DNA of 64,000 nucleotides from an uncultured Myxococcales bacterium (GTDB lineage: Bacteria > Myxococcota_A > UBA9042 > CAZBRS01). The DNA lies in assembly GCA_964494475.1 (NCBI GenBank), contig CAZBRS010000003.1, forward strand, positions 80,286-144,285. The letters run 5' to 3'. The notes beneath the pieces are model-generated. The model made no database searches, was not told the origin of the DNA, and saw only the letters and a list, made by a program, of their open reading frames with translations. How positions within the stretch are numbered: position 1 is the stretch's first letter; each line of letters starts with the position of its first letter. Positions 5,012 through 28,415 of the stretch are shown here, piece by piece. The position numbers and the translations under genes were made by a program.

Positions 5012-5470
5012 CTACTCGGGGAAGAGGCGCGAGACGTGCGATCCGTCGGGCGCGTGGGCGGCCAGCAGGAATCGCCCCCGCAGGTTGGCCCCCAGGGGGT
5101 CGAAGACGGCGCGCGGCTCGGAGGCGGCGGCCAGCCAGGCACGAACCTCCACGTCGGCCAGCAACTCGGCCAGCAGCGCGTCGAAGCGAGCGCTGAAGTC
5201 GGCCACCACGTCGGACAGATCGGGGTCGGAGGGCTCGTCGGGCCGGAGGGGGAACGCCACCTCGGTGAGCACGAGCAGCCGCGGAGGCACGTCGACGGTG
5301 CGCGACAGCGTGAGCTCGATTCGCTCCTGCAGGGGGGGATCGAGCGCCGCCACGCGCGCCGACGCCACCTTCCACGACGCCAGCAGCGGAGCGGCCGAGC
5401 CGCGGCGCGCGCGCTCGAGCGCCTGCTCGACGGTCAGGGTGGGCGCGACTTCGTTGGGGGGAGTGGCCAC
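5012..5470 (-). CDS. Hypothetical acidic protein downstream of the calpain-like protease
   Basis: High GC3 on the same strand and in the same operon as the calpain-like gene. No recognisable domain. Confidence 0.45.
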   Translation of the reverse strand: MATPPNEVAPTLTVEQALERARRGSAAPLLASWKVASARVAALDPPLQERIELTLSRTVDVPPRLLVLTEVAFPLRPDEPSDPDLSDVVADFSARFDALLAELLADVEVRAWLAAASEPRAVFDPLGANLRGRFLLAAHAPDGSHVSRLFPE

Positions 5471-5498
5471 GGCGAACCTCCGATGATGCGGCCGGTGC

Positions 5499-6662
5499 TC
5501 AGGCGTACTGCAGCTCGGCGAAGATGTCGTCGAACTCCGGGAGCGACAACGTGAAGACGCCCGTGGCCTCGCCCGGCGCGCCCTTGGGGTTCGACCCCCA
5601 CGGGTTCCGGATCGTGATGCGATCGGCCTTGGCGTCCCAACCGATTACGCTGTAGGCGTGCCCCTTGGGCAGCTTGAGCCGGTTCTCGGTCATCACGGCC
5701 GCCGTCACGATGCGGCCCTCCTTGAAGGCACGCGTGAGCTTGCCCCGGGTCGCGGCCAGCCCCGTGAGCGCCAGGAAGTCGTGGTCGCCGCGATGCCCGC
5801 TGAACGTGAGGACGCCCTCGCTCAGCAGGTTGCCATCGCCGACCTCGGCCTGACGATCCGTCTGGGCGCTCTTGCCCTTCACCTGGCCGTAGGCCTTCTC
5901 GAGCACCGGCAGCCACAGCCCGTCGCCGCCCGACGACGAGTAACGCGCCACTTCGGCGTCGGTGGGCGGCGCGATGGTCACCGTCCCCCGGCCCGGGAAG
6001 TCGACCGTATAGCCGACGACCTGCTTGCCCTTGCGGTTCTCGCGAATCATGCGGACCACGGCCAGGGGGTCGCGCGCGATGACGCTGCCGAGAGCCGCCA
6101 GGAAATAGCAGTCGCCCAGGCCGCCCTGCCTGAGCGCCGAGAGGGTGGGCGCGCCGTTCGGGAACAGCACGCGGGACTGACCCGCGATCCGCGCCAGCCC
6201 GTTCGAGTGCGACAGGTCGACGCCGCGCTTCTTTCCGGCCTCGTAGGCCACGAGATCGGTGCGCGAGAGCCCGTCGTTCTCGTCGCCGAGCTCGTCGTTC
6301 GACAGCTCTTCGAGATCCTCGATGGCCTTGTGCAACGCCGCCACGGCCGCCGCCTCGGCGCCCGTGATGCGGGGGTCGAGCATCAGCGAGTTGGCCTCGG
6401 CCCGCGAGATGAAGCCGTCGCCGTTCCGGTCCCACGTCGAAAAGCGCGCGCGCGCGATGGTGGCCCACCCCGACGCCGGCACCGCCGGCTTCACCGCCGT
6501 GGCGCCGGCCCCGGCGGCCGTCGTCGGACGCAGCGCCGCGGTCTGGGCTCCGTAGCCCGTGGCGGGCACGTTGGCGCGCGCGACCGTCGTACGCGTCTTG
6601 TCGGCCGGCGCTACCGAGGGGGTCGCAGCGGTCTTCGGTTGGGGCTTCTGGTCGTGGGGCAA
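5499..6662 (-). CDS. Calpain-like cysteine protease (peptidase C2 catalytic domain) with an N-terminal EF-hand
   Basis: The EF-hand loop is DRNGDGFISRAE. The calpain catalytic triad motifs are QGGLGDCYFLAALG, KGHAYSVIGW and RNPWG. A TTG start at 6662 is proposed, preceded by GGGAGG with a 6-nt spacer. The upstream part of the 597-aa ORF is an S/T/R-rich frame artefact that collides with the lipoprotein gene at 6781. Confidence 0.7.
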   Translation of the reverse strand: MPHDQKPQPKTAATPSVAPADKTRTTVARANVPATGYGAQTAALRPTTAAGAGATAVKPAVPASGWATIARARFSTWDRNGDGFISRAEANSLMLDPRITGAEAAAVAALHKAIEDLEELSNDELGDENDGLSRTDLVAYEAGKKRGVDLSHSNGLARIAGQSRVLFPNGAPTLSALRQGGLGDCYFLAALGSVIARDPLAVVRMIRENRKGKQVVGYTVDFPGRGTVTIAPPTDAEVARYSSSGGDGLWLPVLEKAYGQVKGKSAQTDRQAEVGDGNLLSEGVLTFSGHRGDHDFLALTGLAATRGKLTRAFKEGRIVTAAVMTENRLKLPKGHAYSVIGWDAKADRITIRNPWGSNPKGAPGEATGVFTLSLPEFDDIFAELQYA

Positions 6663-6780
6663 GCGGGCCTCCCGCCCCGACGAGGGGCGATGCGTTCCTT
6701 CTGCGGCGTCGATGGTATAGAATTCACCCGCGACCCGCAAGGCGAGCGCCCCCGGGGCCCGCTGCCGGGGAGGGAGGCCC

Positions 6781-7320
6781 ATGCCACGTCTCGTGACCGC
6801 GCTGCTCGTGCTCGTGCTCCTCGGCTGCCGCGGCGCGCCCGCCGCCGTGCCTCCCGAGTGCGGGCCGACGCGCCTCGACGAAAGTCGCGTCAGGGCGGCG
6901 CTCCCCCTGGTGTTGCCCCCCGAGCTCGCCGCCTGGAACGTGATCGCGCTCCAGCAGGACGCCTGCCCGGGCGCCGAGGCCTGGGAGCGGGTCGACGTGA
7001 CGCTCGAGGCCGCCCCTCGCGAGGGAGCACCGACCTGGCGGGCCGTGCTGACGCTGCGGCTCTCCGTACCCGAGGCGCGCCTGGTCGAAGGCGACGAGAT
7101 GCCCGCGGTGCGCGCAGTGGCCGAAGCGGCCGGGCGATGTCGCGAGCTCGAGGCCCTGGAGCCCGTCGTCGCCTGGCTCGCGACGCACGGCCCCGCGCTG
7201 GCCGTCCTCGAGCCCGGCGCACCCGACCTGGCCGTGGTGCACCTTCGGCCCCGCGAGGCGTCGGCTGGCGGGACCGAGCTCCGCTTCGCCACCCGGCTCG
7301 GTCGTCCCCTCCCGCCCTAG
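6781..7320 (+). CDS. Lipoprotein, hypothetical
   Basis: The ribosome binding site GGGAGGGAGG precedes the ATG. The signal peptide carries an LLGC lipobox. GC3 is high. Confidence 0.6.
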   Translation: MPRLVTALLVLVLLGCRGAPAAVPPECGPTRLDESRVRAALPLVLPPELAAWNVIALQQDACPGAEAWERVDVTLEAAPREGAPTWRAVLTLRLSVPEARLVEGDEMPAVRAVAEAAGRCRELEALEPVVAWLATHGPALAVLEPGAPDLAVVHLRPREASAGGTELRFATRLGRPLPP

Positions 7321-7392
7321 GAACGTGGACTTTTCGCCCGAATCGGCGACAATGCGCTCGATTCCGGGCCCCGCCCCAACGGAGACCACGCC

Positions 7393-8712
7393 ATGCGGCT
7401 CGCGAGCTTCCTCCTGCTCCTGATCGGACTCTCTCCGGCCCCCGTGTCAGCTCAGGCTCCCCTCGGCGGCCTGTCGGCGCTGGGCGGCGAGAACGTCGAC
7501 ATCTTCTCGATCCACGTGGTCGTGGGCCCCTCCGAGCGCGATCTGGAGTCGGTGGCGCTGTGGATCAAGGAGTGCGAGCCGTCCGATCGTCCGGCAGTCT
7601 GCGGCGAGCTGATGCGCCTCCTGAACAAGGACCTGCAGCTGACCGGGCTCTTCCGCCTGGTCGACCCCACGGCCCTGATCGTCGATCGCGACAAGGAGAG
7701 CTACGAGACCACCCAGTACCAGGGCTGGTTCGACAGCGGCGCGCGCTACCTGGTGAAGGGCGCCGTGCGCGACGGCAAGGTCTCGCTCAAGCTGCACAAC
7801 GTGCTCGAGAAGGGCTCGTTCCGGTTCAAGAACGAGTCGTTCGCCGCCGACGAGAAGAGCCTCGTCAAGGGCGTGCACGGCTTCATGAACGAGCTCGTCC
7901 TCGCCCTGTCGGGCCAGAAGGGGCTGTTCGACTCGGTCATCTGGTTCGTCGCCATGGGCGCCAAGGGCACCAAGTCCATCCGCTCGTGCTATCTCGACGG
8001 CACCGGCCTCTCGACGCTCATCGACAACGGCTCGGTCAACCTCTTTCCGGCACCCGCGCCGGGCGGCAAGGTGCTCTACACATCGTTCCTGGCCGGCCTG
8101 CCGCAGATCTTCATCGGCGACAAGCGCCTCACCCACGACGATCTGCAGTACCGCGGCGCGCAGTTCTCACCCGACGGCAAGCGGTTGGCCGTGGCGGTCA
8201 ACGTCGACGGCGACGGCGATCGCGAGAGCCAGACCGACATCTTCCTCATGGACCCCGAGTCGGGCCGGCTCGGCAAGAACCTGACCGAGTCCGACGCCGA
8301 CGAGGTCACCCCCTCGTGGTCGCCCGACGGCGGGCAGCTCGCGTTCGTGTCGAACCGCAGCGGCAACCCCCACATCTACGTCATGAACGCCGACGGCACC
8401 GGCGCGCGCCGCCTCACCTACGCCGGCATCTACAACAGCACGCCCGACTGGGGCCCCAACGGCCTCATCGTGTTCACCGGGCTCGACGAGGGCAACGCCG
8501 ACATCTTCACCGTCGACCTCGGCGGCAACCTGCGGCGCCTCACCCAGGACCAGGGCAAGAACAAGGACCCGCGCTGGGGCCCCGACGGCCGGTACATCAC
8601 CTACGTGTCGCGCCGCAGCGGCTCGTGGAACCTGTACCTCATGACCCCCGACGGTCGCTATCAGTGGATGATCGTGAACGGGGAAGGCGATCTGTCGACG
8701 CCCTGGTGGTAA
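7393..8712 (+). CDS. tolB: Tol-Pal system beta-propeller protein TolB
   Basis: There is a signal peptide and a TolB N-domain. PD40/WD40-like repeats are present (SPDGKRLA, SWSPDGGQLAF and NPHIYVMNADG). Confidence 0.85.
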   Translation: MRLASFLLLLIGLSPAPVSAQAPLGGLSALGGENVDIFSIHVVVGPSERDLESVALWIKECEPSDRPAVCGELMRLLNKDLQLTGLFRLVDPTALIVDRDKESYETTQYQGWFDSGARYLVKGAVRDGKVSLKLHNVLEKGSFRFKNESFAADEKSLVKGVHGFMNELVLALSGQKGLFDSVIWFVAMGAKGTKSIRSCYLDGTGLSTLIDNGSVNLFPAPAPGGKVLYTSFLAGLPQIFIGDKRLTHDDLQYRGAQFSPDGKRLAVAVNVDGDGDRESQTDIFLMDPESGRLGKNLTESDADEVTPSWSPDGGQLAFVSNRSGNPHIYVMNADGTGARRLTYAGIYNSTPDWGPNGLIVFTGLDEGNADIFTVDLGGNLRRLTQDQGKNKDPRWGPDGRYITYVSRRSGSWNLYLMTPDGRYQWMIVNGEGDLSTPWW

Positions 8713-10446
8713 CTAACCTGCCGGATTGAACACGAACGGCCACTTGACGATGCAGATGCCGCCCTTGGGCTTCTGGAACGTCATGCGACGGATGCTGCGG
8801 AGCACGCAGTCCTCGACCTGCCCGTTCTTCAGGGTGGTCGCGATCACCGTGGCGTTCTGGGCCTTGCCTTCCTGGTCGATGGTCCAGCGCACGTCGATCT
8901 TGCCGGCCAGATCGGGGTTCAGGATGAGCTGGCTCTCGTAGCACGCCTTGATGGCGTTCTTGCGGCGCATCACCATGTTGCGGATGTTGCTCTTCTCGCA
9001 GAAGCCCTCGGCGCTGCCCTGGCCGAAGTTGATCTGCGACACCTTCTTGGTGCCCTTGCGACCCAGGCTGGCCTTCATGCCCACGCCGCCCCCGGTATCG
9101 ATCTTGCCGAGGCCCTGGATGCGCCCGTAGCCGCCAGCGCCACCGCCGCCCTTGCCCGTTCCGCGGAAGCCGAGGCCTCCGGATCCGTGGCCGAGGACGA
9201 ACTCGGCGCCCGTGCCGCTCATGGCGACGGCCAGCTTGTTGTTGAACCCCTCGTCGTTGGACATGAGGTTCGAGAGCGCGCTGTTGTTGTTCAGGTTGTC
9301 GGACAGCATGGAGTTCAGGCCGATCTTCTTGGGATCGATCTCCTTGACCATCTTGCCGTCGCGCTTCGGCACCTTGCTCTCGAGGTCGGGATCGACGTCG
9401 GTGTCGCCGAACTTGCCCTCGTCGCCTTCGGCCTGCTTGCCGGTGGTGTCTTCCTCTTCGCCGAGATCCTGCTGCTTCTGCTCCTCGAACGTCTCGAACT
9501 CGACCTTGAGCGTCTTGTTCGGGTCGTCGATCTTGGGCTTGGCGGGGGACTCGACCCAACTGAACAGCGAGAACGCCAGCAGCCCGAACTGCAACACGAC
9601 CGACGCCAGGAACACGCCCATGAGGTCACGGTCGAACACCATGCCGAGCGAGCCGAAGCGCCGGTGCTGCCGCACGAAGCGGAAGAACAGGTTCACGCGG
9701 CCGATGTTCCACACACCCCAGTCGCCGTCGTTGAACGGCACGTAGTTGACGCCCGAGACGTTGAAGGTGTTGGCCTTCAGGAACTCGGCGATCTCGCTCT
9801 TCTTTCCGCCGATGGAGACCTGGCCCTTCATGGCGGTCGACAGACCGATCTTGTATTCACCGGCGCCCGTGGCCGTGAACAGCTTGAACGACTTGGGCAG
9901 GTCGGTCGAGGGCACCGTGAACGTGTTGGCGATGCCCTCGCCCGCCGTGACGTCTTGCGGTTCGGTGAACATGAGCTCGTGCACGACCTCGCCGTGGAAG
10001 AACTGCGCCACGCGCAGGAACGGCCCGTGCGGCAGCCAGCCCGTCTCGGCGTTGACCGTGGCCAGGCCGCCGACCAGCAGCGCCACCGAACCCAGCATGA
10101 CGAAGTAGTACCCCACCAGCGCGATGATGACATCGGTCTGGAAGATCTGCGGACAGGCCAGGAAGATGTAGCCGAGGGTGGCCATCGTCCAGAGCCCGAA
10201 CACGATGTTCGCGGCGCCGTAGGCCCGCCGCATCTTGCGAACGAAGATGACCGCGCTGACCCCGAGCGAGAGCACGAGCGTCGCGATGAGCATCGCGATC
10301 GAGCCGGTGGGCCCCTCGAGGCCCAACAACCACTCGAGCCCCGTGACGTTCATGAGGAGTTGTTCGAGCTCGAAGAACGGAAGGACCGTCGCCCCGATGA
10401 GCGCGACGAACGCGCCCACGACGGAGATCAGGAGTCCTTTCTTCAT
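8713..10446 (-). CDS. Polytopic inner-membrane protein with a C-terminal TonB/TolA-C-like (AgmX/PglI-type) domain
   Basis: There are about five N-terminal TM helices. A Lys/Glu/Asp/Gly-rich low-complexity linker follows. The C-terminal 100 aa (AIKACYESQLILNPDLAGKIDVRWTIDQEGK...VLRSIRRMTFQKP) fit a TonB_C-like pattern. The stop codon directly abuts the tolB stop, with 0 nt between them. Confidence 0.6.
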   Translation of the reverse strand: MKKGLLISVVGAFVALIGATVLPFFELEQLLMNVTGLEWLLGLEGPTGSIAMLIATLVLSLGVSAVIFVRKMRRAYGAANIVFGLWTMATLGYIFLACPQIFQTDVIIALVGYYFVMLGSVALLVGGLATVNAETGWLPHGPFLRVAQFFHGEVVHELMFTEPQDVTAGEGIANTFTVPSTDLPKSFKLFTATGAGEYKIGLSTAMKGQVSIGGKKSEIAEFLKANTFNVSGVNYVPFNDGDWGVWNIGRVNLFFRFVRQHRRFGSLGMVFDRDLMGVFLASVVLQFGLLAFSLFSWVESPAKPKIDDPNKTLKVEFETFEEQKQQDLGEEEDTTGKQAEGDEGKFGDTDVDPDLESKVPKRDGKMVKEIDPKKIGLNSMLSDNLNNNSALSNLMSNDEGFNNKLAVAMSGTGAEFVLGHGSGGLGFRGTGKGGGGAGGYGRIQGLGKIDTGGGVGMKASLGRKGTKKVSQINFGQGSAEGFCEKSNIRNMVMRRKNAIKACYESQLILNPDLAGKIDVRWTIDQEGKAQNATVIATTLKNGQVEDCVLRSIRRMTFQKPKGGICIVKWPFVFNPAG

Positions 10447-10584: not shown

Positions 10585-10652
10585 CCCGTCCGTTGCCCGG
10601 CCGTGGTATTGGCCGCGGTAGGTTCATTCCTGTCTATTCTGGGAGGAGCCAG

Positions 10653-11312
10653 ATGAGCTTCATCGCGGAGTCGTTCGAGAAGGGCGGATGGATGATGTGG
10701 CCGATCCTCATCACGAGCATCTTCGTGTGGGGTGTGGCAATCGAGAGAACCATTTACCTGTTCTTCCGGGCCAGCGCCCCCGCGGAGGCGCTCCTGCACC
10801 TGCTCGAGCGGTCCATCATGTCGGGCGACCTCGCCCGCGCCATCAAGGACTCCTTGACGCAGAACTCGCCCCTGGCGCGCATCATCCGCTCGGGCCTCAC
10901 CAAGGTCGAGCGCGGCACCGACGAGGTGCAGGCCGCCATCGACGAGGCCGCCCTCCGCGAGCTGCCGAAGATCGAGAAGCGCACGGCCTACCTTGCCATG
11001 TTCGGCAACGTCGCCATGCTCCTCGGCCTGCTCGGCACCATCACGGGCATGATCATTTCGTTCGGCGCCGTCGCGAACGCTGATCCGTCCGAGAAGGCCT
11101 CCCTGCTGGCCCGCGGCATCTCCGAAGCCATGAACTGCACCGCCTTCGGTCTGATCACGGCCATCCCGGCGCTGCTGTTCTTCGCCATCCTCCAGGGCAA
11201 GACGCAGAAGCTCATCGACGACATCAACGAGGGCTCGATCCGCGTCGTCAACCTGGTGCTGGCGCACAAGGACCAGCTCCTGTCGAAGGAGTCCACGCGT
11301 ACGAAGGGCTAA
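10653..11312 (+). CDS. MotA/TolQ/ExbB-family proton channel, AglR/TolQ-like
   Basis: The ribosome binding site GGGAGGAG precedes the ATG. There are three TM helices with the conserved family architecture. Confidence 0.8.
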   Translation: MSFIAESFEKGGWMMWPILITSIFVWGVAIERTIYLFFRASAPAEALLHLLERSIMSGDLARAIKDSLTQNSPLARIIRSGLTKVERGTDEVQAAIDEAALRELPKIEKRTAYLAMFGNVAMLLGLLGTITGMIISFGAVANADPSEKASLLARGISEAMNCTAFGLITAIPALLFFAILQGKTQKLIDDINEGSIRVVNLVLAHKDQLLSKESTRTKG

Positions 11313-11367: not shown

Positions 11368-11850
11368 ATGGCTGGCGGTGGATCCCCGACTCCGAGCAAG
11401 AGTGGCAAGAAGTCCTTGGACTTCGTCGTCAATCTTGTGCCGATGATTGACCTTCTCTCCGTGCTGATCTCGTTCCTGCTCATCACCGCCGTGTGGACCG
11501 AGTTGGCTCGCATCAACACGGACAACGTGATGGACAAGTCCGACGTCAAGCCCAAGCAGGAGCAGCAGGAAGAACGCAAGGACCTGAAGATCCTGCTCGA
11601 CGACAAGGGCGGCGTTCAGATGCGCTTCACGGGCGAAGAGCCCGTTCGCGTCGAGCGGGGTGACGACCTCATGGGTCGCTTCCGCGAGAAGATCACCGAG
11701 CTCAAGAAGCGCGCCAAGGAGAACCAGAAGGTCATCGTCGCCGCCGAAGACAAAGTCCAGTACGAGCTGCTCATCCAGGTCATGGACATTTGCCTCGACG
11801 TCGGCCTGAAGGCGCTCTCGGTCGGTGATCCGAGCGCGTTCGAGTCCTAG
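11368..11850 (+). CDS. ExbD/TolR-family protein, copy 1
   Basis: There is a single TM helix carrying the conserved Asp (VPMIDLLSVL) and a periplasmic ExbD fold. Confidence 0.8.
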   Translation: MAGGGSPTPSKSGKKSLDFVVNLVPMIDLLSVLISFLLITAVWTELARINTDNVMDKSDVKPKQEQQEERKDLKILLDDKGGVQMRFTGEEPVRVERGDDLMGRFREKITELKKRAKENQKVIVAAEDKVQYELLIQVMDICLDVGLKALSVGDPSAFES

Positions 11851-22986: not shown

Positions 22987-24207
22987 ATGCGCTGGATCTT
23001 CAGGCTGCTCCTCCTGTTGCCCCTGGTGGCCCTCGGCCTGTTGGCGCTGGCCTGGGCGCTGTTGGTCCACACCGACGCCCCCGCGCACGTCGTGACCACC
23101 GGATTCAACGACGAGAACACCCGGCTGTGGCTCGAGGCCCGAACGGCTCGCCTGCACGGCGACCTGATGGGCCTGCGGATCGAGGACCTCTCGCTGGCCG
23201 AGCGCACGCGCACGCAGCCCATGGTGCGCGTCGAACGCTTCGATGCGAGCTTGAGCGCGCTGCCCACCGATGACCTCGTCGACATCGATCGCGTCGAGGT
23301 GAGCGGACTCGACATCGATCTCGACGTGGCCTGCCTGCCCGCCCTGCAGGAGTTCGCGATCCGCAAGGCCGAGCCCCCGAAGCCCGGCGGGCCGGCGCCG
23401 TCGGTCCGCTTCGGGAGGCTCGTGCTCACCGACGCGTCCTTCGCGTGGCGGGGCGCCGCGTCGTCCGTCGAGATCCCCGACCTCGACCTCGAGCTCTCGG
23501 GCGTCACGGGACCGGCCACCGACGTGACGCTCGCCGCGAGCCTGGCGGGCGCCACCATCGGCGCCGCGTCCACGGCGGTCAAGCTGGGCAAGCTGAAGCT
23601 CGACGGCTCGTTGAAGGGCAGCACGGAGGGCTCGGGAGAGTTGAAGCTCGACGCCGTCGCGCTCGAGAGCGTCGAGGCCGGCGCCTGGCGGATCGGGGGG
23701 CTGGCGCTCGGGGAAACGACGCTGACCTTGCAGGGACTCGGTGGGCGGCTGGTCCTCGGCGCGCTCGGGCTCCGCAGCCTCACCGGCCCCGACTTCGATC
23801 TGGCCGACGCCACCCTCTCGCTCGACGCCACGGGAGGGCTGGCCGGCGTCGAGCTCACGCGGGCCGCGCTCTCCTCGCCGCGCCTCTCGATCACGCTCGA
23901 CGGCACCGCGAAGCCCACCCTCGGCCTCACGGGCAGCGGCCTCGAGGTCAAGCTGCAGGGCTCGTTCCAGGTCGAGCCCGCGGCGCTGCTGCCGAAGGCC
24001 TGCGCCGGCGTCACCCGCGCGAGCGGGCGCTTCCTCGTCACGGGCGGATCGAAGGGCGGCCTGAAGCTCGACTCGCTCACGCTCACGATGACCGGCGCCG
24101 ACGGCGACCACGAGTTCACGCGCTCGGGCGTGGCGCTGACCGAAGGTGCGGTCGTACGAGCCCTCTTCAGTGAACTGTGCTCCACGGTGGGCACCGGAGC
24201 GCCGTGA
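22987..24207 (+). CDS. AsmA-like membrane-anchored protein, first gene of the TamB/Omp85 operon
   Basis: The ribosome binding site GGAG precedes the ATG at 22987. There is an N-terminal TM anchor, followed by beta-rich repeats rich in Gly and Leu. Confidence 0.55.
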   Translation: MRWIFRLLLLLPLVALGLLALAWALLVHTDAPAHVVTTGFNDENTRLWLEARTARLHGDLMGLRIEDLSLAERTRTQPMVRVERFDASLSALPTDDLVDIDRVEVSGLDIDLDVACLPALQEFAIRKAEPPKPGGPAPSVRFGRLVLTDASFAWRGAASSVEIPDLDLELSGVTGPATDVTLAASLAGATIGAASTAVKLGKLKLDGSLKGSTEGSGELKLDAVALESVEAGAWRIGGLALGETTLTLQGLGGRLVLGALGLRSLTGPDFDLADATLSLDATGGLAGVELTRAALSSPRLSITLDGTAKPTLGLTGSGLEVKLQGSFQVEPAALLPKACAGVTRASGRFLVTGGSKGGLKLDSLTLTMTGADGDHEFTRSGVALTEGAVVRALFSELCSTVGTGAP

Positions 24208-27200
24208 CCACGCCGTCGGCCAGGGAGACCCCCCCGCGCACGCGCCCACCCCGCAGGGGAGGCTTGCGGCGCCTCGGCCGCTGGGCCGTGCGCCTGCTGG
24301 CGACCCCCTTCCTGCTGCTCGCCCTCTCCTACCCGGTGGCCTGGTTCGCGCTCAATTCACCCGAATTCCTGACCCGCGCGCTCACGACCGTCAACGAGGC
24401 CATCCCTGGCACCATCCGGGTACGCGAGCTGGAGTGGGGGCCCCTGCCCTGGAGGCTCCACCTCACGGGCGTTCGCATCCTGGCGCCCGGCGACCCCGAG
24501 CCCGTGATCGCGGTGAACGACCTGGTGGTCGACCTCGCGCTGACCGACGCGCTGCGGAGCGCCCTCGCCACGCTCCTGCGGGGCGAGGGCTTCTTCCTGC
24601 CCGTCGACTCCGTGACGATGCGGGGCTACTCGTGCACGCTCACCTTCGACGACGACTTCGACCTGCGCCTGAAGCACGCGTTCGTGACCCCGACCCCCGC
24701 TGCCGAGGAGCCCCCGGACCCCGAGGACACGGACGACGACGCCAGGGGCTTCTCGATGGACGTTCGACGGGTGGTGGGACGCGGAGGCCGCTTCCGCATC
24801 GACTACCCGGCGTGGGGAGCGTCGACCGACGGCATCGACCTGTACGCGGTGTTCCGCCTCGAGAGCGACGGGACCCCCTTCGTGCTGGCGTCGACCGTCA
24901 CGAGCCGACGGGGTGAACTGCGGGTGGGCGACGGCGGACAGCCGGTGGTCTTCCCCTTCGAGGACCTCGAGGTCCACGGCTACATGCTCGATCACCTCTT
25001 CGAGCGCTTCGGGAGCGTCCGCTTCTCCAGCGAGGGCCTCCGGGTGCTGGCCACCGGACACCTGGCCACCGACGATCCCGCGCGCTGGTCCGAGCTCATC
25101 GCCAAGATCGAGGTGCCCGTCGACGCCCCGGGTCTGCTGCGATGGACGGGCGACCACGTGAGCCTGGCCGCGCCGGCCTCGTTCGAGGGACGCCTCGAGG
25201 GCCCCCTGGCGAGCCCGTCCCTGACCTTGGCGGCGGGGCCCCTGGCGATCACCAGCCCCTGGGTCCCGGGCCGGGTCTCGGTCGAACCGTTCCAGGCCAC
25301 CCTCGCCTTCCGGCCCATCGACGACGAGCTCAGCATCTCGCGCCTGGCCTTCGCGGGCGACTGCCTGCCGGCCGTCGAGGCCCGTGGGCTGCGGTTGGGC
25401 CTGGGCTCGCTGAACATCGAGGGCGAACTGCACGCCGGCGAGCTCTCGCGCGCGTTGTGGCCGCTCGACTGGCCCGTGGTGCTCGAGGCCGTGAAGAAGG
25501 CGGGGGGCTCTCTGCGCGTGGCGGGTCAGTTGCCCCTCGGCGAGGTCTGCGGACGACGGCTGGAGCTCGACGCCGACCTCGATCTCGGTGGGCACAGGGG
25601 ATTGACGGGCCGGCTCACGTGGGACCCCACGCGCCTCGAGTTGACCGATCTGCGCCTGGCGATGGACGTGGGCGAGGCCTCGGCCACCGGCTGGATCGAG
25701 CCCGGATCGGGCCGGCTCGACCTGCGCACCGAGGGCAAGGTGCGCGACCTCGCGACGTTCGTCGAGCGCCTGCACCTGCCTCCACGGGTGGCCGGCTCGG
25801 CGGTGTGGTCGGCCGAGGCCCGCGGCGCGTGGCCCGACCTCGACGGGAGGGGTTCGCTCGACGCCACGGCGCTGCACGTGGCCGGCCTCGACCTGGGCGC
25901 CGTTCGAGCGCGGGCCACGTTCGAGGAGCGGGTGCTCCGAGCCACGCGCTTCGAGATGACGGGGCCCCTCGGCGCCTATGCCGGGCGCGGCCTCGTCGAG
26001 CTCGACGAGGCCTGGCGGCCGACGCACGTTCGGCTCGACGAGGTGCGGGCCGCGCTCGACGCGCCCTCCATCCTCCTGCCCGATCTTCCCCTCGGCGCGC
26101 GGCTCGAGGTCAGCGCGACCGACCTCGAGCTCGAGGTCTCGGCGCCGCTGGCCTCGCTTCGGGGGAACGCGACGGTGCGGGCGGCCGGCGTGTCGTGGCT
26201 GGGCGAACCCATCGGCGACGTACAGGCCGACGTGCACGCGCCCGCTGGCGGCGATCTGCGGCTCGATCGCGTCGAGGTCCGCCGAGGGGGCAAGCGCCTG
26301 CTGGCCGCGGGGCTGACCGTCGATCGCGGCCTCGAGCGCGTGGCGGGCTCGGCGTCCGTCTCGGCGACCGTGGCGGAGCTCCCGTTCCTCCAAGGCCTGC
26401 CGTTCCCGCTGTCCGCCGAGGTCGCGCTCTCGCTCAGCGTCGAGGGTGCGCTCCTCGACCCCCTGGTGAGCGGCGTGCTTCGGCTCGACGACTGGGAGGT
26501 GCGCCCGCGTCCGGGCCTGCGGGTCCGGGGCAACGAGGCCACCGTGCGCCTGTGGGGTCGGCCCTCGACCGGCCTGCACCTGGCCTCGGACGACCTCTAC
26601 CCCGGCGTGCGGCTCAGCGAGCAGTCCACGCTGCGGCCCCTCGACGTCGACCTCTTCCTCGAGGTCGAGGGCCTGCAGCCCCTCGAGTTCTTCGAGGCGG
26701 CGGCCGACCTGCCCCTCTCCATCACGCTCGGCGGCACCTACCGCGTGAGCGCCCGCTTCGGCGGGCCCGCCTCGGTCACGGTGCTCGGCCGCATCCCGCG
26801 CCGGTCGCTCGGGGTGTCGCTGCAGGACGAAGAGGTGACCCTCTGGAACGAGGAGGAGACCGTCTTCGGCGTGTCGCCCCTGGGGCTCTTCGTGAACCGC
26901 CTCCACCTGACCGGCCAGAGCCTCGAGGCCGCCCTGTGCGGCGAGATCGGCCCCGACGGGGCGCTCGACGTGTCGGCCTCGCTGCAGGCCCGCGTCGCCA
27001 ACCTGCCGGGCCTGAAGGAGTTCCTCATCGAGCGGGGCGGCGAGCTCCGGACCGAGGGGCGGGGCGACGCGGCCTCGTGCCTGCCCGACGCTGGCGGCAT
27101 CCACGTGGGGGGCACGTTGGACCGACCTCGCTTCTCGGGGGCCGTGGTGCTGCAGGACCTGGCGCTGCGCCCGCGCGGCTTCGCGAGCACGATCCAGGTG

Positions 27201-28415
27201 CCCGGCCGGGCGCGCCTGCTCGTGAGCCAGGAGGACGACGAGACCTGGGTGCGCGTCGACCCTGAGGCGCCGCTGAAGGGCGTGCTCGACGAGGGCGCCT
27301 TCGAGGTGTCCGGCTCGGCCCGCTTCCGGCGCTTCCGGTTCGAGGAGGGCTCCGTCACCGTGACCGGCGCCAACGTGGCCTATGCGCTCCCCGGCGTGAC
27401 CGAGTTCACGGCCAACCCGAAGCTCACCCTCACCGCGCGCCCCGGCACCGACGACCCCTACGTGCTCTCGGGCGACGTGCGGTTCGTGAGCGGCCTGTTC
27501 TACAAGGACTTCGACCAACTGCGGCAGATGCTGACGGGAGTGCTCGGCGACCGTCACGCCGCCGCCTACTCGCGCCCCATCGACGAGCTCCTGCCCTTCG
27601 TCAAGGACCTGCGCTTCGACGTGCGCCTGCGGGGCCAGAACTACGACGTGCGCTGCCGCCTGCCGTTCGGCGAGACGGATCTGGCGTTGAACCTCGACCT
27701 CCGCCTGGCCGGTACGTACAGCCAGCCCGAGCTCTACGATCGCGTCGAGATCGTGCCCGGCTCCATGGTCACGTACCAGCTCGTGAAGCGCGACTTCGAG
27801 GTGACCCACGGCACCCTCGACTTCACGGGCGAGCCGGCGCGCCCCGAAGTCGAGATCCGCGCCAAGACCGACATCGACGTGCTGGTGCGCGCGGGGTCCA
27901 CGGGAGGCGCGACCACGGCCTGGATCGACACCGATCGCGAGGAGACGGTCACGCTCGTGCTGGCCCTCTCGGGGCGCCCCCCCGATCTGCGCTTCGACCT
28001 GTCGTCGAACCGCACCGACTTCGACCAGGAGGATCTGCAGTACCTGCTGGTGACGGGCCAGCCCAAGCAGGCGGGCAGCTCGGGCCTCGTGAGCGGCGTC
28101 AGCCTGAACCTGCTGACCCAGGATCTCGTGAAGTCGCTCTCGAGCTTCTTCCTGGCTCCCTTCCTCGACCGGGTCAGCCTGGGCTTCACGGCCGAGGGGG
28201 GCGTGAACGCCGACCTCATGACCCGGCTGGGTCGCCGCGTACAGCTTCGCACTCGCATCCTGCAGGAGGGCACCGACGTACGCTACTCGGCCGGCTTCAC
28301 GTTGAAGCTGAGCGATCGCCTGAGCCTCGACGGCCGCATGAAGGCCATCGAGACCGAGGGCTTCCAGAGCCGCACCTACGAGGCCAAGCTGCGCTACCGC
28401 ATCGAGGTCGACTGA
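24204..28415 (+). CDS. TamB-like translocation and assembly module protein (AsmA family, DUF490-type C-terminus)
   Basis: The GTG start overlaps the upstream stop as GTGA. There is an N-terminal TM anchor. The protein is about 1400 aa of beta-rich sequence. The C-terminal region (LDLRLAGTYSQPELYDRVEIVPGS...) resembles TamB DUF490. Confidence 0.7.
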   Translation: MTTPSARETPPRTRPPRRGGLRRLGRWAVRLLATPFLLLALSYPVAWFALNSPEFLTRALTTVNEAIPGTIRVRELEWGPLPWRLHLTGVRILAPGDPEPVIAVNDLVVDLALTDALRSALATLLRGEGFFLPVDSVTMRGYSCTLTFDDDFDLRLKHAFVTPTPAAEEPPDPEDTDDDARGFSMDVRRVVGRGGRFRIDYPAWGASTDGIDLYAVFRLESDGTPFVLASTVTSRRGELRVGDGGQPVVFPFEDLEVHGYMLDHLFERFGSVRFSSEGLRVLATGHLATDDPARWSELIAKIEVPVDAPGLLRWTGDHVSLAAPASFEGRLEGPLASPSLTLAAGPLAITSPWVPGRVSVEPFQATLAFRPIDDELSISRLAFAGDCLPAVEARGLRLGLGSLNIEGELHAGELSRALWPLDWPVVLEAVKKAGGSLRVAGQLPLGEVCGRRLELDADLDLGGHRGLTGRLTWDPTRLELTDLRLAMDVGEASATGWIEPGSGRLDLRTEGKVRDLATFVERLHLPPRVAGSAVWSAEARGAWPDLDGRGSLDATALHVAGLDLGAVRARATFEERVLRATRFEMTGPLGAYAGRGLVELDEAWRPTHVRLDEVRAALDAPSILLPDLPLGARLEVSATDLELEVSAPLASLRGNATVRAAGVSWLGEPIGDVQADVHAPAGGDLRLDRVEVRRGGKRLLAAGLTVDRGLERVAGSASVSATVAELPFLQGLPFPLSAEVALSLSVEGALLDPLVSGVLRLDDWEVRPRPGLRVRGNEATVRLWGRPSTGLHLASDDLYPGVRLSEQSTLRPLDVDLFLEVEGLQPLEFFEAAADLPLSITLGGTYRVSARFGGPASVTVLGRIPRRSLGVSLQDEEVTLWNEEETVFGVSPLGLFVNRLHLTGQSLEAALCGEIGPDGALDVSASLQARVANLPGLKEFLIERGGELRTEGRGDAASCLPDAGGIHVGGTLDRPRFSGAVVLQDLALRPRGFASTIQVPGRARLLVSQEDDETWVRVDPEAPLKGVLDEGAFEVSGSARFRRFRFEEGSVTVTGANVAYALPGVTEFTANPKLTLTARPGTDDPYVLSGDVRFVSGLFYKDFDQLRQMLTGVLGDRHAAAYSRPIDELLPFVKDLRFDVRLRGQNYDVRCRLPFGETDLALNLDLRLAGTYSQPELYDRVEIVPGSMVTYQLVKRDFEVTHGTLDFTGEPARPEVEIRAKTDIDVLVRAGSTGGATTAWIDTDREETVTLVLALSGRPPDLRFDLSSNRTDFDQEDLQYLLVTGQPKQAGSSGLVSGVSLNLLTQDLVKSLSSFFLAPFLDRVSLGFTAEGGVNADLMTRLGRRVQLRTRILQEGTDVRYSAGFTLKLSDRLSLDGRMKAIETEGFQSRTYEAKLRYRIEVD

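Follow-up and report, generated by a model that had tools for sequence, protein, structure and literature searches.

Calpains are the textbook Ca2+-activated proteases of eukaryotes. The classical enzymes (CAPN1/CAPN2) combine a CysPc protease core with a CBSW/C2-like domain, a C-terminal penta-EF-hand (PEF) domain and a small subunit, and their inhibitor calpastatin is intrinsically disordered. The core itself carries two Ca2+ sites that bring the active site together, formed in calpain-2 by Ile89/Gly91/Asp96/Glu175 and Glu292/Asp299/Gln319/Glu323 (PMC4631099). Bacterial calpains that have been surveyed, including Tpr of Porphyromonas gingivalis, belong to the same family (C2) and are rare, patchily distributed, devoid of the core Ca2+ sites and uncharacterised (PMC4631099, PMC9380684). 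Rawlings (2015) stated that no bacterial calpain homologue has an EF-hand domain, placed EF-hand acquisition inside the eukaryotes and predicted that most bacterial calpains do not depend on Ca2+ (PMC4631099). According to Veselenyiova et al. (2022), bacterial calpains have only CysPc in common with other calpains (PMC9380684). Here, we describe a calpain gene with an N-terminal EF-hand pair, together with two genes of a partner family not described before, in a 64-kb stretch of ~71% G+C DNA from an uncultured Myxococcales bacterium (contig CAZBRS010000003.1), hereafter the window; all positions are window coordinates. The reading that we favour, at a probability of roughly 45%, is that the calpain is a Ca2+-switched effector acting outside the cytoplasm and neutralised by cytoplasmic and exported immunity or inhibitor proteins.

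Several bacterial cysteine proteases are encoded next to a protein that controls them. In the staphopain/staphostatin (scpAB, sspBC) and SpeB/Spi pairs, a secreted papain-like cysteine protease is co-transcribed with a downstream gene for a cytoplasmic inhibitor, a protein of ~110–150 amino acids (aa) without a signal peptide that shields the cytoplasm of the producer; the same order of protease and small protein is seen in the window. Cpe1–Cpi1 is an interbacterial papain-like cysteine protease toxin with a linked immunity protein (PMC12136450). Toxins associated with extracellular contractile injection systems (eCIS) have an N-terminal DUF4157 domain and a C-terminal toxin domain (PMC8213781).

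The window calpain shares with the classical calpains the CysPc family and the Gln, Cys, His, Asn and Trp residues in the same motifs, and its predicted fold superposes on the solved cores with a target-normalised template modelling (TM) score of about 0.55. Both systems couple the protease to an EF-hand module, and the partner in the window may be an inhibitor like calpastatin. In contrast to the classical enzymes, the window calpain has an N-terminal pair of EF-hands (one canonical, one atypical) in place of a C-terminal penta-EF-hand, a core of ~220 aa, and no CBSW/C2-like domain, small subunit or core Ca2+ sites, and its partner is predicted to be a folded alpha/beta protein rather than a disordered one. 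Since the EF-hands occur as a pair at the opposite end of the chain, the fusion looks like an independent, convergent coupling. The surveyed bacterial calpains have CysPc only, whereas the window family adds the EF-hand pair, a leader and the partner family. Staphostatins show no sequence or fold likeness to the window partner, and the window locus differs from theirs in having an exported paralogue and a protease without a Sec signal or pro-domain. Cpe1–Cpi1 offers a model for an effector–immunity reading, although its protease belongs to a different family, calpain being named there only as an analogy, and the window protein by contrast has no recognisable delivery domain or secretion-system association in the window. 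Neither Cpe1–Cpi1 nor the staphopain/staphostatin and SpeB/Spi pairs are homologous to the window proteins. The architecture of DUF4157 eCIS toxins matches that of one relative (P0014, described below), while the window protein itself lacks DUF4157.

The calpain gene and its protease core

The features of the gene that bear on its start, transcription and catalytic core are as follows.

5499 to 6662, minus strand: coding sequence of the EF-hand calpain, 387 aa, TTG start and TGA stop (open reading frame, Pfam Peptidase_C2, independent gene callers; G+C at third codon positions, GC3, 0.93)
5499 to 6170, minus strand: calpain protease core, residues 165–387, ~220 residues (Pfam, PDB matches, alignment, Foldseek)
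6108 to 6110, minus strand: TGC codon of the catalytic Cys185 in GDCYFLAA (sequence)
5658 to 5660, minus strand: codon of His335 in GHAYSV (sequence)
5604 to 5606, minus strand: codon of Asn353 in RNPWG (sequence)
6668 to 6673, minus strand: Shine–Dalgarno-like GGGAGG, 5 bases before the TTG at 6660–6662 (sequence; kept with the start codon in four orthologous loci)
6714 to 6740, minus strand: candidate promoter-like block TTGCGG-N15-TATACC in the divergent intergenic region (kept in the window and L081, partly in L091/L082)

The coding sequence lies inside a longer minus-strand open reading frame (5499–7292), residues 383–567 of which matched Pfam Peptidase_C2 (PF00648) with 52.9 bits against a gathering cut-off of 23.8 (E=3.7e-14). 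Calpain cores in the PDB were matched with E=5e-9 from the single sequence and E=3.7e-26 from the family profile. The first-pass annotation had read three calpain motifs as intact; they were confirmed at the codons listed above and stayed intact on careful alignment, as did Gln179 (oxyanion) and Trp355 (in NPWG). Across 53 aligned relatives, Gln179, Cys185 and His335 were invariant, while Asn353 was replaced by Asp in two and Trp355 by His in three. Cys185 is the only cysteine in the whole protein. The AlphaFold2 model, built with the 53 relatives, had a mean predicted local distance difference test (pLDDT) score of 88.5, a predicted TM score (pTM) of 0.82 and a core pLDDT of 94–98, and the top 36 matches of this model in a Foldseek search of the PDB were all calpain cores (best E=3.5e-11, TM 0.54–0.60, target-normalised).

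PDB alignments placed Ala176, Gly248 and Val369 opposite the Ca2+-site residues Asp96, Glu175 and Glu323 of the classical core, and the loop after NPWG that bears Asp299 and Gln319 was deleted (~16–20 residues). The chain ends at residue 387 with the last strand of the core, and neither a CBSW/C2-like nor a penta-EF-hand domain was found in the window calpain by Pfam or beyond the core. The lack of the core Ca2+ sites and of the CBSW and PEF domains sets this family C2 member apart from the classical calpains; at most it would work like them, with EF-hands sensing the Ca2+. Judged from its sequence, it is a catalytically intact minimal calpain-family (MEROPS C2) cysteine protease. The closest relatives of the window come from metagenome-assembled Myxococcota, and identical proteins are recorded in NCBI and Logan assemblies, named solely ‘hypothetical protein’; members of the family at large carry that name or ‘Calpain family cysteine protease’ only.

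The TTG start after GGGAGG, which had been proposed from the sequence, was upheld by several lines of evidence. Independent gene callers assigned the 387-aa length to an identical sequence, and the orthologues P0002 and P0003 share this start. The Shine–Dalgarno-like site, a TTG or GTG start and the following Pro-His-Asp codons were kept in four orthologous loci, while the sequence further upstream diverged except for the promoter-like block. G+C at second codon positions (GC2) was 0.53 in 5499–6662, which together with the GC3 of 0.93 is coding-like, and rose to 0.81 in the same frame upstream of the TTG. Longer starts (413 and 417 aa, called for the cluster mates P0075 and P0001) were ruled out because the upstream TTG at 6738–6740 falls on the −35 part of the conserved promoter-like block, and because the added region is less conserved than the coding sequence and has a non-coding GC2, the Shine–Dalgarno-like site and start at 6662 being conserved. 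A consensus promoter scan did not call the TTGCGG-N15-TATACC block, which is listed as a candidate only. A terminator-like hairpin within the calpain coding sequence (6113–6136) was dismissed as being at chance level (1 found, 0.6 expected).

The N-terminal EF-hand pair

Upstream of the core, the N-terminal domain contains the following elements.

6240 to 6470, minus strand: EF-hand pair domain, residues 65–141, two helix-loop-helix units (AlphaFold2 pLDDT 91–98; family profile)
6396 to 6431, minus strand: canonical EF-hand loop DRNGDGFISRAE, residues 78–89 (sequence; pattern in 45 of 53 relatives)
6255 to 6302, minus strand: second, non-canonical acidic loop SNDELGDENDGLSRTD, residues 121–136 (between helices 101–117 and 134–141)

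The first loop reads D78-R-N80-G-D82-G83-F-I85-S-R-A-E89, with ligands at positions 1, 3, 5 and 12, Gly at position 6 and a hydrophobic residue at position 8; relatives were scored with the pattern D-x-[DNS]-x-[DNSG]-G-x-[ILVMFYC]-x3-[ED]. The AlphaFold2 secondary-structure string gave helices at residues 65–77, 87–94, 101–117 and 134–141, with a loop after the first and the third of them and single bridge residues at 85 and 132. The pLDDT of the pair was 91–98, falling to 72 in the second loop. No stretch of the N-terminal domain is better conserved than the second loop; with Leu132 set to position 8, Asp127, Asn129, Ser133 and Asp136 occupy positions 3, 5, 9 and 12 of this loop.

The family profile of the N-terminal domain matched calmodulin, calbindin and other EF-hand proteins with E=1e-10 to 3e-14 through the first hand only, and the second loop found no match among calmodulin-type loops with this profile. 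Several relatives carry above-threshold EF-hand Pfam matches. From the loop pattern, the family profile and the predicted structure, residues 65–141 very likely form a Ca2+-binding EF-hand pair. The first-pass annotation had described a single N-terminal EF-hand; the hand itself is real at the level of the family profile and the predicted structure, but it is one of a pair whose second loop is non-canonical.

Five longer relatives (P0037, P0038, P0041, P0042 and P0047) contain a unit made up of the canonical loop and ‘LEExSNDExGDENDGxTxxDL’, repeated two to four times before the core, which makes the atypical second loop an integral part of a duplicating two-hand module. The segment ‘LEELSNDELGDENDG’ of the calpain (residues 113–131; 6270–6326, minus strand) resembles ‘LNICSDDELGSEEDGF’, from the calcineurin A part of a calmodulin–calcineurin fusion (PDB 4il1_A); with 6.2 bits, not significant alone, this resemblance of the second-loop motif is probably a coincidence.

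The leader

6483 to 6662, minus strand: low-complexity leader, residues 1–60, predicted to be disordered (pLDDT 43–64; hydrophobicity scan)
6525 to 6557, minus strand: leader motif GYGAQTAALRP, residues 36–46 (family pattern [GS][YF]xxQxxxLxP)

A hydrophobicity scan found no Sec/Tat-type hydrophobic segment in leader residues 1–60. Of the 26 closest relatives, 21 had the strict pattern and a further three had variants of it, and AlphaFold2 predicted a short helix at residues 37–43. A regular-expression scan of all loci found the motif in only four open reading frames other than calpains, consistent with chance. The proteins P0028–P0034, a second group of EF-hand calpains at ~40% identity, have a similar-looking N-terminal motif (‘LLGNSFLAQTML’, ‘GNAFLASMMP’) at an equal distance from the N-terminus, so the strict regular expression may define the leader element too narrowly.

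The downstream partner gene

5012 to 5470, minus strand: coding sequence of the 152-aa cytoplasmic-type partner, GTG start, of the family with an N-terminal MAxPP motif (GC3 0.92; AlphaFold2 pLDDT 91.9)
5477 to 5481, minus strand: GGAGG ribosome-binding site of the partner gene, 6 bases before the GTG (in the 28-nucleotide spacer after the calpain stop)

The calpain and partner genes are predicted to be co-transcribed, on the basis of the 28-nucleotide spacer, the GGAGG site within it and the lack of any terminator-like site between the two genes; the operon suggested in the first-pass annotation thus stands. The same annotation had called the product a small acidic protein. The 152-aa open reading frame is genuine, but the protein is only mildly acidic (pI 4.8; 22 Asp+Glu against 15 Lys+Arg).

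No Pfam, NCBIfam or PADLOC match was obtained for the partner, and an exhaustive HMMER search of 1.84 billion representatives returned a family of 18 members only. Each of the 14 distinct loci examined (the window, L081, L083, L001–L004, L089, L091/92, L093, L094, L095/96, L097 and L098) has a family member immediately 3' of its EF-hand calpain despite differing flanks, which included tolB-like and truA genes in the window, penicillin amidase, CMD and melibiase genes in L083, glycosyltransferase genes in L095 and an acyl-CoA dehydrogenase gene in L097. This strict linkage bears out the suggestion that the downstream gene encodes a partner of the calpain. Between the window and L083, identity was 30% for the partner and 54% for the protease, indicating that the partner diverges faster. 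A tblastn search with the partner against 80 GTDB loci found nothing by itself, and the homologues in L001–L004 were recovered by profile searches only. No partner homologue was found beside the calpains below ~45% identity (L005–L080); the partnership may thus be limited to a single Myxococcota clade or have diverged past detection.

AlphaFold2, run with 19 sequences, predicted an alpha/beta fold for the partner (pLDDT 91.9, pTM 0.83). A Foldseek search with this model returned nothing at E≤1e-3 and no convincing solved relative. The only near-invariant columns of the partner family are Ala2, Pro4 and Ala121.

The divergent exported-type paralogue

6781 to 7320, plus strand: coding sequence of a 179-aa exported-type paralogue of the partner, lipobox-like LLGC, divergent from the calpain gene (hhalign; hydrophobic N-terminus)

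The product of this gene matched a three-member partner profile with an hhalign E of 5e-5. The identical upstream protein in L085–L087 scored 4.6e-29 against a broader hidden Markov model (HMM) of the partner, a score that is not independent because the alignment behind the HMM includes this sequence. Against a three-member profile of downstream proteins only, with no upstream proteins in it, the upstream counterparts in L001 and L083 gave 3.1e-8 and 2e-15, respectively. Longer or exported paralogues (179–263 aa) occur upstream and in divergent orientation in the window, L081, L083, L001 and L089, whereas in L095 their position is further downstream. In L002 and L003 (8.7 and 9.4 kb of sequence, respectively), the sole partner gene found is of the exported type; L094 comprises 3 kb of sequence only.

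Exported-type members have hydrophobic N-termini and 3–6 cysteines at conserved positions, as compared with 0–1 in cytoplasmic-type members; in the window, the upstream paralogue has four and the cytoplasmic copy none. Their cysteine content fits disulfide formation outside the cytoplasm. The locus is accordingly larger than the pair in the first-pass annotation, in that the divergent lipoprotein gene belongs with the calpain and its partner: as predicted from the gene sequences, it is a three-gene module of an EF-hand calpain, a cytoplasmic partner and an exported, Cys-bearing lipoprotein paralogue. In the close relatives L091 and L092, the calpain directly follows the tolB-like gene and the exported paralogue is absent, and a 37-aa remnant open reading frame was seen in L082. 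From its absence in L091/L092, the upstream paralogue appears to be dispensable or recently lost.

A 221-aa open reading frame at 6724–7389 (minus strand), antisense to the lipoprotein gene, was rejected as spurious: gene callers take the plus-strand gene, which has homologues. This antisense frame has a high GC3, and long antisense open reading frames are common in DNA of 71% G+C; a naive GC3 filter chose the wrong strand.

Relatives and distribution

In the protein collection, 49 clusters of the EF-hand calpain family had an E below 1e-26, the family as a whole having at least about 50, and ~30 species-level genomes had a match reaching into the EF-hand region. Carriers were Myxococcota, Sericytochromatia, Melainabacteria/Obscuribacterales, Blackallbacteria, Vulcanimicrobiota, Xenobia, Planctomycetota, one Burkholderiales metagenome-assembled genome and others, all of them uncultured. 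Several relatives have additional modules at their N-termini. P0014 (49–52% identical) has the leader motif, then DUF4157/eCIS_core and then the EF-hand calpain, and P0024 keeps the segment found after DUF4157 in P0014. P0051 is a fusion of WXG100 to calpain, with a similar N-terminal helical region in P0050. Sec-like signal peptides were recognised in P0044 and P0049, both distant EF-hand calpains (hydrophobicity scan and inspection).

Plasmid and phage collections contained no EF-hand calpain and two distant core-only plasmid matches. Full-text literature searches found no paper on a bacterial EF-hand calpain or on a calpain domain in polymorphic toxins. In Melainabacteria/Obscuribacterales, the calpain is one of two or three similar open reading frames of 550–650 aa in tandem (L019, 2311–9565; L021, 2300–9586; L025, 4096–10504; also L023 and L027); by BLASTP clustering only, these are apparently arrays of paralogous EF-hand-repeat calpains.

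Proposed mode of action and alternative explanations

In the reading that we favour, the protease would be an effector working outside the cytoplasm of its producer. Ca2+ control through the EF-hand and a possible inhibitor role of the small protein had been suggested in the first-pass annotation, and both are treated here as hypotheses. As the core lacks the classical Ca2+ switch, the EF-hand pair would be the Ca2+ sensor: it would be empty at the sub-micromolar Ca2+ of the cytoplasm, leaving the enzyme off, and would load at the much higher Ca2+ outside the cell. Binding by the partners would neutralise the protease, with one copy serving the cytoplasm and the other the periplasm or a membrane. 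Their N-terminal A-x-P-P segment, the best-conserved element of the partner, is a candidate cleft-binding, cleavage-resistant element, and the conserved leader of the protease is a candidate export signal. Action outside the cytoplasm is argued for by the existence of exported partners, which are the sole copy found in L002 and L003, by the Sec-like signal peptides of P0044 and P0049, and by the fusion of the protease to delivery modules in relatives (P0014, P0024, P0051 and P0050). The locus also has an arrangement expected of effector–immunity modules, a small gene directly 3' of the effector that travels with it between contexts, in 14 of 14 loci.

Several observations weigh against this reading. 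The window calpain has no signal peptide, lipobox, PAAR, Rhs, LXG or DUF4157 domain or C-terminal secretion signal by Pfam and hydrophobicity scan, and no secretion or injection system was found within the 64-kb window. The surrounding genes have housekeeping functions in the envelope and in metabolism (tolB-like, ExbB/ExbD, TruA, LysM murein endopeptidase, TamB/Omp85, Lgt and a GlnS-type tRNA synthetase), and the module, although diverging more quickly than the core genes near it, does not outpace its other non-core neighbours. A 44-residue leader profile returned nothing at E≤10 from 5.8 billion proteins, an uninformative result as the motif is too short and of low complexity. The signal-peptide and lipobox calls were made by inspection and hydrophobicity scan only. 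In the EF-hand pair, the second loop is non-canonical, its Gly being displaced from position 6 to position 7 and its position 1 being taken by Leu125, which is no ligand, and the window protein alone scored 14–16 bits against EF-hand_1, _5 and _6, whose cut-offs are ~25. The partner, finally, shows no sequence or fold likeness to any known protease inhibitor or immunity protein, staphostatin, cystatin, chagasin and calpastatin included.

A more specific version is that the module is a new toxin–immunity system, in which a leader-tagged calpain is exported non-classically, armed by extracellular Ca2+ and neutralised in both cytoplasm and periplasm by an immunity family of new fold. The export route would possibly be related to DUF4157/eCIS cargo loading or to vesicles, and the EF-hand pair would have been acquired convergently. 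We put this version forward tentatively and regard it as somewhat doubtful.

The alternative that survives best is an intracellular regulation resembling that of calpain and calpastatin, in which a cytoplasmic protease senses Ca2+ transients through its EF-hand pair and carries out limited proteolysis, for example in stress or development, while the 152-aa protein is its cytoplasmic inhibitor or regulator and the exported paralogue has a separate role. Such a role would suit a protease without an export signal, a same-operon partner of the cytoplasmic type with no signal peptide and no cysteine, and a module surrounded by housekeeping genes in a window that lacks a secretion system; moreover, the micromolar Ca2+ to which EF-hands typically respond is that of intracellular signalling. 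We nevertheless consider it unlikely, given that an exported-type partner, the only one found in L002/L003, cannot regulate a cytoplasmic enzyme, that relatives are fused to toxin-delivery modules or bear Sec signals, and that it is difficult to see why a resident cytoplasmic enzyme should have a conserved disordered leader.

The small proteins could also act as chaperones, secretion adaptors or maturation factors, maintaining the protease in an export-competent state or aiding its folding or processing on either side of the membrane. A dedicated chaperone would account for the strict one-to-one linkage as well as an inhibitor would, the partner is unlike known inhibitor folds, and the long disordered leader of the protease could be the part that they bind. 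Secretion chaperones and adaptors, however, are usually confined to the cytoplasm, and the family here also includes exported paralogues, probably with disulfide bonds, which are at times the only copy found; the partner also diverges faster than the protease, which is more typical of immunity proteins, as inferred from toxin–immunity pairs generally. This explanation thus seems quite improbable.

Least probable of the three is that the EF-hand pair is merely structural (constitutively metal-loaded or metal-free), the protein being an ordinary Ca2+-independent C2 peptidase for, e.g., nutrient or prey-protein degradation and its neighbours having an unrelated envelope function: Myxococcota secrete many degradative enzymes, and the non-canonical second loop and sub-threshold EF-hand Pfam scores would agree with it, as would the Ca2+ independence predicted for most bacterial calpains (PMC4631099), but few columns of the protein are as conserved across phyla as the Ca2+-ligand positions of loop 1 and the acidic ones of loop 2, and linkage in 14/14 loci with changing context argues against an unrelated function of the partner. 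A role in anti-phage defence or on a mobile element was rejected in view of the lack of PADLOC hits, the absence of EF-hand calpains from plasmids and phages, and the housekeeping neighbourhood.

Neighbourhood in the window

The module is flanked by a Tol/Exb-like envelope cluster, and three further genes of note lie farther away.

7393 to 8712, plus strand: TolB-like beta-propeller protein
8713 to 10446, minus strand: 577-aa multi-pass protein, no Pfam match
10593 to 11312, plus strand: ExbB/TolQ
11368 to 11850, plus strand: ExbD/TolR
24177 to 28415, plus strand: TamB-like gene, 1412 aa
28417 to 31725, plus strand: large Omp85/POTRA gene, 1102 aa
40296 to 40970, plus strand: stand-alone 224-aa DUF4157/eCIS_core protein (E=9e-26) with a HELTH zinc motif

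The adjacent TamB-like and Omp85/POTRA genes form a TAM-type outer-membrane assembly pair that is apparently unrelated to the calpain module. The stand-alone DUF4157 protein is encoded between a VKOR-DsbA fusion gene and an Omp85-like gene, 34 kb from the calpain, and is without the calpain leader motif. No eCIS structural genes were found within the window.

Significance

The published surveys of 2015 and 2022 deny EF-hands in bacterial calpains, and the window family contradicts that general statement. It places an EF-hand pair on the N-terminal end of a minimal calpain core that has lost its internal Ca2+ switch; a Ca2+ sensor would here have been joined to a calpain independently and by convergence. 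With 387 aa and a single cysteine, the window protein would be a compact model for EF-hand gating of the calpain fold. The orphan partner family, with its cytoplasmic and exported versions, is a candidate new class of folded calpain-binding proteins, and an interbacterial or predatory use of the module is a testable hypothesis. Since all members come from uncultured organisms, the value of the finding is that of a clear experimental lead rather than an established mechanism. If the toxin–immunity system is true, it would be the first Ca2+-sensor-coupled calpain outside eukaryotes, with the first calpain-specific folded inhibitor.

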